From Escherichia coli (lineage in GTDB: Bacteria > Pseudomonadota > Gammaproteobacteria > Enterobacterales > Enterobacteriaceae), in NCBI RefSeq assembly GCF_003334405.1, contig NZ_QOWM01000004.1: 64,000 bases of DNA. The stretch is one strand, 5' to 3'. Below the pieces are notes generated by a model that was not told the origin of the DNA, made no database searches, and saw nothing but the letters and a program-made list of their open reading frames with translations. Position numbers and translations under genes: made by a program. Shown one piece after another: positions 31,000 to 46,865 of this stretch. Within the stretch, counting starts at the first letter, position 1. Each line of letters opens with the position of its first letter.

Positions 31000-31191
31000 G
31001 TCTCCCTTTGATACCGAACAATAATTACTCCTCACTTACACGTAATACTACTTTCGAGTGAAAATCTACCTATCTCTTTGATTTTCAAATTATTCGATGT
31101 ATACAAGCCTATATAGCGAACTGCTATAGAAATAATTACACAATACGGTTTGTTACTGGAATCAATCGTGAGCAAGCTTGAGTGAGCCATT

Positions 31192-36103: not shown

Positions 36104-37252
36104 ATGTCCACGTATACCCAGCCTGTCATGCTTTTGCTGTCTGGCCTGCTTTTGTTGACTCTGGCGATTGCGGTGTTAAATACACTCGTGCCGCTTTGGC
36201 TCGCCCAGGAACACATGTCCACATGGCAGGTAGGCGTTGTCAGCTCATCCTATTTTACCGGCAACCTTGTCGGTACATTGCTGACAGGGTATGTCATTAA
36301 GCGCATTGGCTTTAACCGCAGCTATTATCTGGCCTCCTTCATTTTTGCCGCTGGCTGTGCCGGCCTTGGCCTGATGATTGGATTCTGGAGCTGGTTGGCT
36401 TGGCGTTTTGTCGCGGGCGTCGGCTGTGCCATGATTTGGGTGGTTGTTGAGAGCGCGCTGATGTGCAGTGGGACGTCACGTAACCGTGGGCGTTTGCTTG
36501 CTGCGTATATGATGGTTTATTACGTGGGAACGTTTTTAGGCCAGTTACTGGTCAGCAAAGTTTCAACCGAGCTGATGTCCGTATTGCCGTGGGTTACAGG
36601 TTTGACGTTGGCAGGGATCTTACCGCTGTTGTTTACGCGTGTGCTGAATCAGCAGGCTGAAAACCATGATTCGACGTCAATTACGTCAATGCTAAAACTC
36701 CGTCAGGCGCGGCTTGGCGTGAATGGCTGCATTATCTCAGGAATCGTTCTGGGATCTCTATATGGCCTGATGCCGCTGTACCTCAATCACAAAGGGGTGA
36801 GCAATGCCAGCATTGGTTTCTGGATGGCGGTACTGGTCAGTGCGGGTATCCTTGGACAATGGCCGATTGGACGTCTGGCGGATAAGTTTGGTCGACTGCT
36901 GGTGTTGCGTGTTCAGGTCTTTGTCGTCATTCTCGGCAGTATCGCGATGCTTAGCCAGGCGGCGATGGCCCCAGCGTTATTCATCCTCGGTGCCGCTGGC
37001 TTTACGCTATATCCGGTGGCGATGGCATGGGCTTGCGAGAAAGTTGAACATCATCAACTGGTGGCGATGAACCAGGCCTTACTGTTGAGCTATACTGTGG
37101 GAAGTCTGCTTGGCCCGTCATTTACCGCTATGCTAATGCAGAATTTCTCCGATAATTTATTGTTTATCATGATCGCCAGCGTATCGTTTATCTATTTGCT
37201 GATGCTGCTGCGCAACGCCGGTCATACGCCGAAACCCGTTGCTCACGTGTAA
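36104..37252 (+). CDS. ycaD: MFS transporter, substrate unknown
   Basis: 382-aa hydrophobic ORF with about 12 predicted helices; position. Confidence 0.82.
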
Positions 37253-41504: not shown

Positions 41505-43787
<2,283 letters not shown>

Positions 43788-43841
43788 GTAACACCTACCT
43801 TCTTAAGTGGATTTTTTATTTACTGCGTACTTCGACAACCA

Positions 43842-44699
43842 TTAATGGTGGTCGTTTTCACGCAGGTAAATGACCCAGTATGTCAACCCAACCAACAAAC
43901 CACCACCGATAATGTTGCCGATCGTAACCGGAATCAGGTTATCAGTGATGAAATTCATCACGGTCAGGTGAGAAAAATTTTCCGGTGCAGAACCGACTGC
44001 GGTCCAAAATTCCGGGGATGCGAAGTCGCGGATTACAATACCCATCGGGATCATAAACATGTTTGCGATACTGTGCTCAAAACCGCTGGCAACAAACATC
44101 GCGACCGGCAGCACCATAATGAACGCTTTGTCCATCAGGCTGCGGCCAGAATAACTCATCCATACTGCCAGACATACCATCAGGTTTGCCAGGATACCAA
44201 GACAGACGGCCTCAATAAAAGTATGGTGCACTTTGTGGTCGGCGGTTTGTAGGACGTTTAGTCCCCATTGACCATTTGCGGTCATATACTCGCCGGAAAG
44301 CCACATTAAAAGTACAAACAGCAGTGCGCCGACCAGGTTGCCAAAATAGACATTTAGCCAGTTTTTCGCCAACTGACCCCAGGTGATGCGCCCACTCGCC
44401 TTAGCAACAACAATCAACACGGTGGAAGTAAAGAGATCGGCTCCGCAGACAACACAAAGAATCAGCCCCAGAGAGAAGCAAATGCCGCCAACCAGTTTTG
44501 CCATGCCGAAGGGCATTGTGCCTGTGCCAGTGGTTGCTGTGATATAGAAGACGAATGCGATTGAGATGAAAACACCGGCGGTAATCGCCAGATAGAAAGT
44601 CTTAAGCGGATGTTTCGTTGCTTTATAGACACCCGCCTCTTCGGCCACTTTGGCCATTGCAGCAGGAAGTAAAAGATCAAAAGGGTTGTCAGCTTTCAC
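43842..44699 (-). CDS. focA: Formate channel FocA (formate-nitrite transporter family)
   Basis: ORF 43842..44873; the conserved N-terminus (V/M)KADNPFDLLLPAAMAKVAEEAG begins at a GTG at 44697-44699, so the gene initiates at GTG. Confidence 0.88.
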   Translation of the reverse strand: MKADNPFDLLLPAAMAKVAEEAGVYKATKHPLKTFYLAITAGVFISIAFVFYITATTGTGTMPFGMAKLVGGICFSLGLILCVVCGADLFTSTVLIVVAKASGRITWGQLAKNWLNVYFGNLVGALLFVLLMWLSGEYMTANGQWGLNVLQTADHKVHHTFIEAVCLGILANLMVCLAVWMSYSGRSLMDKAFIMVLPVAMFVASGFEHSIANMFMIPMGIVIRDFASPEFWTAVGSAPENFSHLTVMNFITDNLIPVTIGNIIGGGLLVGLTYWVIYLRENDHH

Positions 44700-44759
44700 A
44701 CTAACTCTCTCTTTATTAAGTCGGCGACGAGATACTAACAAAGCATTATAGATGAGAAA

Positions 44760-44773
44760 TTGATATAGATCAT
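44760..44773 (-). promoter_or_regulatory. FNR-type site (TTGAT-ATAG-ATCAT) in the focA-pflB promoter region
   Basis: 9/10 match to TTGAT-N4-ATCAA, about 65 bp upstream of the focA GTG; focA-pflB is known to be FNR-activated from promoters upstream of focA. Confidence 0.55.
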
Positions 44774-45104
44774 ATCTCGCCTGGCTTATAGGCCCGTAAC
44801 TCGCATGGTTTTTATGCAAATACGGAGTAAATATTTGATTATCCAAATAAAAATAAATTTTAAAAATTAACAAATGAGTTGAATTTTTTCCGCATCCTCC
44901 GCTAAAACAGTTAATTAAAAGGGAGCATCAGGCGAATAAAGTAACAATATCGATCGTATTTATTAAATACAAATTACCGATATTTAACCTTATAATTACA
45001 ATTATTTTATTAATGCAAATATATGTAAAGCGGGGCATTAAAAAAACGCCCCGTAATATAACTCAGACTAATCATTAAGCCTACATTGCGTAGGCTATTT
45101 GATT

Positions 45105-46865
45105 TTATTTTGCCCAGAATGCTGCTTTGGCGCGCTGCAGCTTTTCGTAGGCCTTCAACAACGACTGATGTGCAGCAAACGCGTGCAGATCGCTATCTAC
45201 CGGTTGCAGGCCGTAAAACGCCGCTTCGCCGCTCATTGCCGCACTGGCGGCTTCTACGGCATCTGCGCCGTACATGCGAACAAACGCATTCAGATATTGC
45301 AGCGGCTGGCGATCTTCTTCCTGTGCCAGTAATAACAACGTTTGCAGGCAGCGATAATAGTTGGCGCGTTCCGGACTAAATACTGATGAGTTAAACTCCA
45401 TCGTCCATTCGGTCCAGACCAGAGCCTGTTCCAGATCGCCACCAGCCAGCGCCAGCATGGCTTTTAATTCACCGATACGCAGGGTGTACCAACCGTTATC
45501 CGACCCGGTCGCCAGACCCAACAGCTCACGCACGCGGGTAAAGTCATCAAAACCTTCTTCATCCAGTTGCTCGATGAGGTTCAGGTAATCTTCTTTTTCC
45601 CACTCGCTGCCTGGTAGCGAAAGAATCGTTTCACGTAAATGGCTGCCCATACTGTTATTCGCGAGCCACAGATCTTCAGCCGGATAAATATCGGACATGC
45701 CAGGCACGATAATACGGCAAGCATAAACGCCCAGATGCTCGTAATCGGCAATATAAACTTCTTTATCTTCTTTGTTGAAGATAGCCATCAGTGTGGCGAA
45801 CTCTTCTTCCGTGGTGCCGGAGAAATTCCAGTCCACAAACGGATAATCGGCATCCTGCTTGAACAGGTCCCAGGAGATTAAACCGCTGGAATCGATAAAG
45901 TGCGTTTCGAGGTTGGTATGTTCAGCGACTTCTTCATCATCGAAGGTTGGCGGAGTAAACACATCCAAATCTTTCAGGCCACGACCTTGCAGCAGCTCGG
46001 TCACGGTACGTTCCAGTGCTACGCCAAAATCAGGATGCGCACCGAAAGAGGCAAAGCAGGTACCGTTAGCAGGATTGAACAGTACCACGCAAATCACCGG
46101 ATACTGGCCGCCAAGCGAACCGTCATAAGCGAAGATTGGGAAACCCTCCGCTTCCAGCGTTTCGATGGCTTCAACTACTGCTGGGTAACGCGCCAGCACG
46201 TCTGCCGGGATCTCTGGCAGGCTGATGCTTTCAGCAATAATGCGGTTTTTCACGTAGCGTTCGAAAACTTCAGACAATCCCTGAACGCGTGCTTCGTTGC
46301 GGGTATTACCTGCGGACATACCGTTGGAGACGTACAGGTTACCAATGATATTCATCGGAATATAAACGGTCTGATTGTCGGACTGACGCGTAAACGGCAG
46401 GCCGCAAATACCACGATCTTCGTTACCGGATTGTAGGTCAATCAGCATGCTGCCGGTCAGTTCATTCTCCGGATCATAAAACGCGCGCAGACGGTCATCG
46501 AGCAGCCCTTCTGGCACATCGTCATTTTCGGTCAGTGGGAACCATTTTTCGTTGGGATAATGCACGAACGGACCGTTGGCGATGGTTTCGCCCAGCCAGA
46601 AGTCCGCAAAAAAGTAGTTGGTTGAGAGACGCTCGAAATATTCACCGAGTGCAGAAGCCAGCGCCGCTTTCTTGGTTGCGCCTTTACCGTTGGTAAAACA
46701 CAGTGCGCACTCTTTGTCGCGAATATGTACAGACCAGACGTTAGGCACGGGATTCAGCCAGGAGGCCTCTTCAATCTGAAAGCCGAGGTCTGAAAGTTTT
46801 TGCTGGAAGCGAGCGATGGAATCTTCCAGAGCGGCATCTTTGCCGGGGATAAATGTTTGCGTCAT
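45105..46865 (-). CDS. ycaO: YcaO-domain ATP-dependent protein (linked to RimO-dependent methylthiolation of ribosomal protein S12)
   Basis: ORF 45105..46898 trimmed to MTQTFIPGKDAALEDSIARF (ATG at 46863-46865). Confidence 0.85.
   Translation of the reverse strand: MTQTFIPGKDAALEDSIARFQQKLSDLGFQIEEASWLNPVPNVWSVHIRDKECALCFTNGKGATKKAALASALGEYFERLSTNYFFADFWLGETIANGPFVHYPNEKWFPLTENDDVPEGLLDDRLRAFYDPENELTGSMLIDLQSGNEDRGICGLPFTRQSDNQTVYIPMNIIGNLYVSNGMSAGNTRNEARVQGLSEVFERYVKNRIIAESISLPEIPADVLARYPAVVEAIETLEAEGFPIFAYDGSLGGQYPVICVVLFNPANGTCFASFGAHPDFGVALERTVTELLQGRGLKDLDVFTPPTFDDEEVAEHTNLETHFIDSSGLISWDLFKQDADYPFVDWNFSGTTEEEFATLMAIFNKEDKEVYIADYEHLGVYACRIIVPGMSDIYPAEDLWLANNSMGSHLRETILSLPGSEWEKEDYLNLIEQLDEEGFDDFTRVRELLGLATGSDNGWYTLRIGELKAMLALAGGDLEQALVWTEWTMEFNSSVFSPERANYYRCLQTLLLLAQEEDRQPLQYLNAFVRMYGADAVEAASAAMSGEAAFYGLQPVDSDLHAFAAHQSLLKAYEKLQRAKAAFWAK

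Follow-up and report, generated by a model that had tools for sequence, protein, structure and literature searches.

The AT-rich DNA between ycaO and focA in this 64-kb stretch of Escherichia coli DNA (the window) carries the control region for focA-pflB, the operon of the formate channel FocA and pyruvate formate-lyase. We put the probability of this reading, with a GUG start codon for FocA and an FNR site upstream of it, at about 0.95. A sequence-only reading had placed the FocA start at the GTG codon 44697-44699, against the longer frame given in a mechanical list of open reading frames (ORFs), and had pointed to a near-consensus FNR site, TTGAT-ATAG-ATCAT at 44760-44773, about 65 bp upstream. 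Both placements hold. The start agrees with the RefSeq annotation in E2865 and MG1655, with published toeprint and Shine-Dalgarno (SD) mutant data and with 79 of the 79 species compared, and the 14-mer, a 9/10 match, lies under a published FNR peak from chromatin immunoprecipitation sequencing (ChIP-seq). The FNR site, the ArcA site, the GUG start, the GUG-UGA overlap and the upstream SD have all been published before, and nothing in the region is new.

The identity of the locus is not in doubt. Window positions 43633-45333 equal NC_000913.3 953400-955100 (E. coli K-12 MG1655) base for base, and published coordinates were converted by fixed offsets (window = NC_000913.3 minus 909,767; window = U00096.2 minus 908,990). 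An 801-nt query (44500-45300), running from the 5' part of focA across the entire spacer into the end of ycaO, found matches in 5,426 of 5,426 complete E. coli genomes. The genes ycaO, focA and pflB are adjacent on the minus strand, with the pflB start at 43787 and the ycaO stop codon at 45105-45107, and the focA-ycaO spacer (44700-45104) measures 405 bp at 31% GC, compared with ~50% in the flanking genes. The annotated focA coding sequence maps exactly here, and its product is identical at 285/285 residues to PDB 3KCU and over its full length to 3KCV, 9G49 and 9I3K; these structures are of recombinant constructs that follow the annotation and give no independent proof of the native N-terminus. 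Identity to characterised FocA and the ycaO-focA-pflB synteny place the protein among the formate-nitrite transporters. Coordinates, identity to MG1655, annotation and conservation were established here, and the occupancy of FNR, ArcA and sigma-70, the toeprint and the reporter effects are taken from the papers cited. For conservation, one scan of representative bacterial genomes gave the closest 80 loci, from ~30 Enterobacteriaceae genera and with FocA identities of 89-100%; 79 had usable upstream sequence, and a column-by-column profile was computed over 76 distinct sequences.

The focA start codon and initiation region

On the minus strand, focA opens with G44699 T44698 G44697, followed by AAA GCT GAC AAC CCT TTT GAT, which reads M-K-A-D-N-P-F-D. 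The GTG, preceded by GT, stands at this place in all 79 species, within the conserved context GAGAGAGTTAGTGTGAAAGCTGAC. At the third positions of codons 2-8 the 79 species show 99% identity, compared with a mean of 69% for comparable codons elsewhere in focA, and the gene holds no other run of at least four codons so constrained; such nucleotide-level constraint would be expected around a real initiation region. Together with in-frame stops close upstream in other species (below), these observations identify GUG as the FocA start on comparative evidence. A 2025 preprint (10.1101/2025.04.04.647229) reports a 30S toeprint in the focA start region that depends on initiator tRNA, and found that mutating the weak SD beside the start abolishes focA-lacZ expression.

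The initiation region is a poor one by sequence. A second GUG at -2 overlaps the annotated GUG (GTGTG, 44701-44697), the arrangement that defines the gtGTG class of ambiguous starts, and focA is listed in Table 3 of the paper on these sites (PMC9841429, Nucleic Acids Research 2022), with no SD of at least 4 nt scored. Unlike other gtGTG sites, that of focA has an alternative frame which ends at UGA at once, leaving no overlapping peptide, and the paper makes no ambiguity prediction for focA. The GUG-UGA overlap was already remarked on in the supplement of bioRxiv 10.1101/2025.04.04.647229.

This arrangement could add a layer of control to the GUG start: ribosomes would start at the upstream GUG (44701-44699), stop at the UGA and compete with initiation of FocA, making GUGUGA a built-in throttle. 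We consider this unlikely. GTGTGA is found in 79/79 species, focA is among the gtGTG starts of PMC9841429, the supplement of 10.1101/2025.04.04.647229 suggests that the overlap may make initiation inefficient, and constraint at the nucleotide level covers the whole initiation region, synonymous sites of codons 2-8 included. Conservation nevertheless does not single out GUGUGA, because a GT before GTG-AAA automatically yields the TGA, and conservation extends to every base within 50 nt in any case. Measured initiation at the -2 GUG was not found in the literature examined. The first 87 nt of the proximal transcript fold no differently from shuffled sequences (z-score 0.03), so that its 5' end shows no unusual structure, and a structured initiation region was dropped as a candidate.

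A longer FocA beginning at an upstream in-frame codon, either TTG 44873 or a TTG 42 nt upstream of the GTG, is very improbable and already effectively refuted. The E. coli frame is open back to 44873, from where the ORF list runs a frame of 343 aa, and the TTG at -42 is present in 59/79 species. Across the 79 species, however, this frame does not stay open: the first in-frame stop is met at positions ranging from -15 to -261, and 20 species have it at -15, -18 or -39 without any start codon between stop and GTG, which rules out the extension as a conserved protein start. The extension would also overlap the FNR site, both -10 hexamers and the proximal transcription start described below, transcripts from which would contain neither TTG, and conservation in the stretch before the GTG does not follow a codon pattern. 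Both the published toeprint and the annotation put the start at the GUG. The TTG at 44873 is only a mechanical ORF extension.

The FNR site and the proximal promoter

The FNR 14-mer, TTGATATAGATCAT on the plus strand and ATGATCTATATCAA in the orientation of focA, has one mismatch to TTGAT-N4-ATCAA. Its centre, 44766.5, is separated from the first GTG base by 67.5 nt, which bears out the upstream distance of about 65 bp. Within the 405-bp spacer it is the sole match of at least 8/10 to the consensus. Myers et al. 2013 (PMC3688515) list the identical 14-mer at 953,750 (U00096.2; window 44760) as bound (Table S6), report in Table S5 an FNR ChIP peak, 953741/953746, that is present in every dataset given there, and centre the top-scoring focA-pflB site at -40.5 from the known transcription start (Table 1). 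In their classification focA-pflB belongs to Category 1, directly FNR-activated with increased anaerobic sigma-70 occupancy, and sigma-70 peaks go up anaerobically at 953,695 (window 44705), where occupancy rises ~7-fold, and at 954,032 (window 45042; Table S2). An independent paper found promoter 6 of focA-pflB to be inhibited by FNR inactivation, and a 2025 review gives a 10- to 12-fold induction of focA-pflB via FNR and ArcAB. Each part of the sequence-only reading is in accord with annotation, published genome-wide data and conservation across species.

Conservation points the same way. Half-sites of the form ATGAT-N4-(A/G)TCAA start 74-76 nt upstream of the GTG in 79/79 species, with ATCAA in 76 (a 9/10 match) and GTCAA in 3, and the four bases between them take seven forms (CTAT, CTAC, CCAT, CCAC, CGAT, CTGA and CCAA). 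Fixed half-sites around a free spacer are the signature of a site for a dimeric regulator. The one mismatch to consensus, an A for T at the outer end of the upstream half-site, is conserved as well. Downstream of the site, the profile is almost invariant over 44775-44700, including TATAAT (44750-44745), TAGTAT (44737-44732) and the short leader. As a separate observation, near-invariance runs on into the gene: from the FNR site to focA codon 8 (44676-44775, minus strand), the 76-79 Enterobacteriaceae sequences hardly differ, synonymous sites and GUGUGA included.

The transcription start of the FNR-dependent promoter was computed from the site centre, at 44726 for the published -40.5 or 44725 for the classical -41.5. 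With a start at either position, TAGTAT lies 6-7 nt upstream, would therefore be the -10 hexamer, at a spacing that is right for a class II site, and the leader would be ~26 nt long. The features of a class II FNR-activated promoter that could be examined are present, namely the inverted repeat, conserved half-sites and a centre near -41.5 with a -10 hexamer, where position was judged by a site centre within 4 nt of -41.5 and the start was taken from Myers et al. 2013. The remaining features, occupancy and regulation by FNR, are documented in the literature. A generic promoter and terminator scan of the region returned one promoter-like TTTACA-17-AATAAT (45029-45001) and one hairpin on the opposite strand, with fewer promoter-like sites than in shuffles; the FNR-dependent promoter escaped it, which the lack of a -35 hexamer leads one to expect. 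The perfect -10 hexamer TATAAT lying 13 bp upstream of TAGTAT probably belongs to an overlapping promoter. This is probably promoter 6A, reportedly described by Kaiser and Sawers in 1997.

Use of the site mainly by CRP or another member of the CRP/FNR family, instead of FNR, is hardly credible. The sites of CRP and FNR are akin, both being inverted repeats of much the same overall spacing, but the half-sites here are TGAT and ATCA around 4 bp and not TGTGA-N6-TCACA, the ChIP peak in all Table S5 datasets of Myers et al. 2013 (PMC3688515) was obtained with an FNR antibody, and loss of both the ChIP signal and anaerobic induction in an fnr mutant has already been reported.

The upstream spacer

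The sequence-only reading had also expected the AT-rich region of about 400 bp to carry further promoters and sites for ArcA and IHF. As regards promoters and ArcA this is borne out by a published ArcA site, a second sigma-70 peak and a distal 5' end. Park et al. 2013 (PMC3798270) report the ArcA ChIP peak focA2 at 953,965, with a site of four direct repeats under it, and the repeat cores TGTAATT, GGTTAAA and GGTAATT coincide with conserved blocks in our column profile. Further upstream, the preprint 10.1101/2025.04.04.647229 tabulates a focA 5' end at 954,814 (NC_000913.3), which is window 45047, and sigma-70 peaks at 954032/954040 (U00096.2; Myers 2013, PMC3688515), or window 45042/45050, lie over it. 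This 5' end probably marks the distal promoter, which would be promoter 7.

The long 5' untranslated region contains the GGAGGA of the published 30S-binding site focA-213, an upstream SD that binds 30S without tRNA and contributes about 10-fold (10.1101/2025.04.04.647229). Most relatives have a purine-rich motif near -200, which is exactly GGAGG in 32/77. The GGAGGA (44893-44900 region, minus strand) is followed directly by an ATG and an 11-codon frame, MRKKFNSFVNF and a stop; a small ORF is unlikely, because a second E. coli already lacks the ATG and has GGAGGATTCGG (L002).

Several further observations concern this spacer. Two hairpins lie 3' of the ycaO stop, AGCCTACGCAATGTAGGCT and CGGGGC-N11-GCCCCG (45031-45053 and 45078-45096, minus strand), and no strong U-tract accompanies either. 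Position 45047, the distal focA 5' end, falls within the second, whose left arm belongs to a strongly conserved block, so that ycaO terminator and distal focA promoter appear to be interleaved. The sole Rfam match in 43700-45300, DapZ at 45023-45099, stayed below threshold at 25.3 bits (gathering score 56; E = 0.09) and was taken as chance. In the river-water E. coli KFu015 (locus L084, NZ_CP147130.1), an IS1 element has entered the ycaO-focA spacer and duplicated 9 bp of its target, 45029-45037; the insertion point separates the distal 5' end from the ArcA site. Recurrent adaptive insertions of insertion sequences upstream of focA, which raise anaerobic expression, are described in a study of evolution in the mouse gut (PMC5094792). 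Published anaerobic H-NS regions from ChIP on microarrays (ChIP-chip) at 953171-953853 and 953975-954657 (U00096.2; window 44181-44863 and 44985-45667) span most of the AT-rich spacer, with a gap at ~44864-44984, and reach into focA and ycaO.

Table 1. Coordinates of the features in the focA-pflB control region (window positions)
Feature	Position	Strand	Basis
focA coding sequence (formate channel FocA, 285 aa, stop included)	43842-44699	-	RefSeq coding sequence in E2865 and MG1655 maps exactly here
GTGTGA: second GTG two bases upstream of the focA GTG, out of frame, TGA at once	44696-44701	-	79/79 species
focA GTG (GUG) initiation codon	44697-44699	-	sequence; RefSeq in E2865 and MG1655; 79/79 species
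GAGAGAG, weak overlapping SD-like motifs	44705-44711	-	sequence; invariant in 76 distinct sequences
Putative start of the FNR-dependent proximal promoter (promoter 6)	44725-44726	-	computed from site centre and published -40.5 (44726) or classical -41.5 (44725)
TAGTAT, candidate -10 hexamer fitting the proximal FNR-dependent promoter	44732-44737	-	100% conserved; assignment by position
TATAAT, perfect -10 hexamer 13 bp upstream of TAGTAT	44745-44750	-	sequence; 100% conserved
FNR binding site TTGATATAGATCAT, 9/10 to consensus	44760-44773		motif search; ChIP-bound 14-mer of Myers 2013; 79/79 half-sites
IHF-consensus match AATCAAATATTTA (WATCAANNNNTTR)	44828-44840	-	consensus search; ATCAA and TTA conserved, spacer varies
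GGAGGA, upstream SD of the published focA-213 30S-binding site in the long 5' untranslated region	44895-44900	-	sequence; preprint
ArcA site, four direct repeats	44959-45012	-	Park et al. 2013, 953949-954002 (U00096.2), identical printed sequence
Distal promoter: TATATT (45060-45055) and 5' end 45047, 348-nt leader	45047-45060	-	preprint 5' end; sigma-70 peak; 90-100% conserved block

Assessment, proposed mechanism and significance

A number of points weigh against the reading of this locus as the focA-pflB control region with a GUG start and an FNR site, or against parts of it. The literature searched gave no native FocA N-terminal peptide. The proof of the GUG by mutagenesis, reportedly given by Suppmann and Sawers in 1994, and the names promoter 6, 6A and 7 are taken from secondary citations of the start-codon and promoter-mapping literature, to which Sawers and Bock 1989 and Drapal and Sawers 1995 also belong. 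The IHF element is the weakest part of what was proposed for the upstream region. A footprint of IHF was reportedly obtained by Sirko et al. in 1993. A consensus match is present and conserved in the pattern to be expected, but a search of the supplement of Myers 2013 found no IHF ChIP-chip entry at its coordinates. Table 1 of the same study counts two FNR sites at this locus, against the one match of at least 8/10 in the spacer, and our search for a strong site serving the distal promoter gave 7/10 matches at best.

Finally, the FNR motif count alone is at chance level: one-mismatch matches in the window number 3 where 2.70 are expected, and at least 3 turn up in 52 of 100 shuffles. As there is no excess over shuffles, motif enrichment was dropped as evidence for the site, which stands above chance because of its position and conservation. 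The three matches lie at 44760 (the focA site), at 31008 in the serS-dmsA spacer and at 37044 inside ycaD, the only intragenic one. The second, TTGATACCGAACAA at 31008-31021 (plus strand), lies 184 bp upstream of the dmsA start codon and coincides with the published dmsA FNR ChIP peak. That the focA 14-mer is a chance match in AT-rich DNA without a regulatory role, as such a count would allow, is the least credible of the alternatives, given the published ChIP-seq occupancy of exactly this 14-mer and FNR-dependent expression, the half-sites in 79/79 species around a varying 4-bp spacer, and the correct class II spacing to a conserved -10 hexamer.

In the mechanism that we propose for the focA-pflB control region, dimeric FNR binds the imperfect inverted repeat at 44760-44773 under anaerobiosis, ~41 bp upstream of a start at ~44725-44726. 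It would overlap the -35 position and contact RNA polymerase in class II style, with TAGTAT serving as the -10 hexamer and no -35 hexamer. The mRNA from the proximal start would carry the leader of ~26 nt, and FocA is translated from the GUG at 44699-44697. A poor initiation region, made up of the GUG, a weak GAG-type SD and the overlapping GUG-UGA, may hold FocA far below PflB, which is encoded downstream. The AT-rich spacer upstream contributes the IHF-consensus match, the multi-repeat ArcA site and a distal promoter at ~45047, whose long leader holds the upstream 30S-binding SD. In this scheme we infer the -10 assignments, the class II mode of activation and the purpose of the weak start.

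The locus is the E. coli K-12 focA-pflB promoter 6 region (Sawers and Bock 1989; Myers et al. 2013), from which it shows no difference, and the result is a re-identification. With the class II FNR promoters of dmsA, narG, yfiD and nikA it shares a near-consensus site ~40.5-41.5 bp upstream, the lack of a -35 hexamer and an anaerobic rise of sigma-70. It differs from them in having further promoters with ArcA and IHF inputs upstream, and in a second, perfect TATAAT 13 bp upstream of the -10 that FNR serves. Among upstream 30S-binding sites (uRBS; 10.1101/2025.04.04.647229) focA is the worked example, with GGAGGA at 44900-44895 as the upstream SD and GUG as the toeprinted start; this site goes beyond both the coordinates and the claim of the sequence-only reading.

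Work on the focA-pflB control region goes back to the late 1980s, and as a discovery the result carries little weight. It has value for calibration: a non-ATG start and a transcription-factor site were placed correctly from raw sequence, and the ORF extension was rightly rejected. Conservation over 44775-44676 that exceeds what promoter and start need might reflect an undescribed post-transcriptional element, for example the target of a small RNA or protein that sets the FocA:PflB ratio, or a start-stop throttle; we regard this as improbable. Conservation of the initiation region beyond the known elements fits the interest in how a weak focA start and an upstream 30S site set FocA levels.

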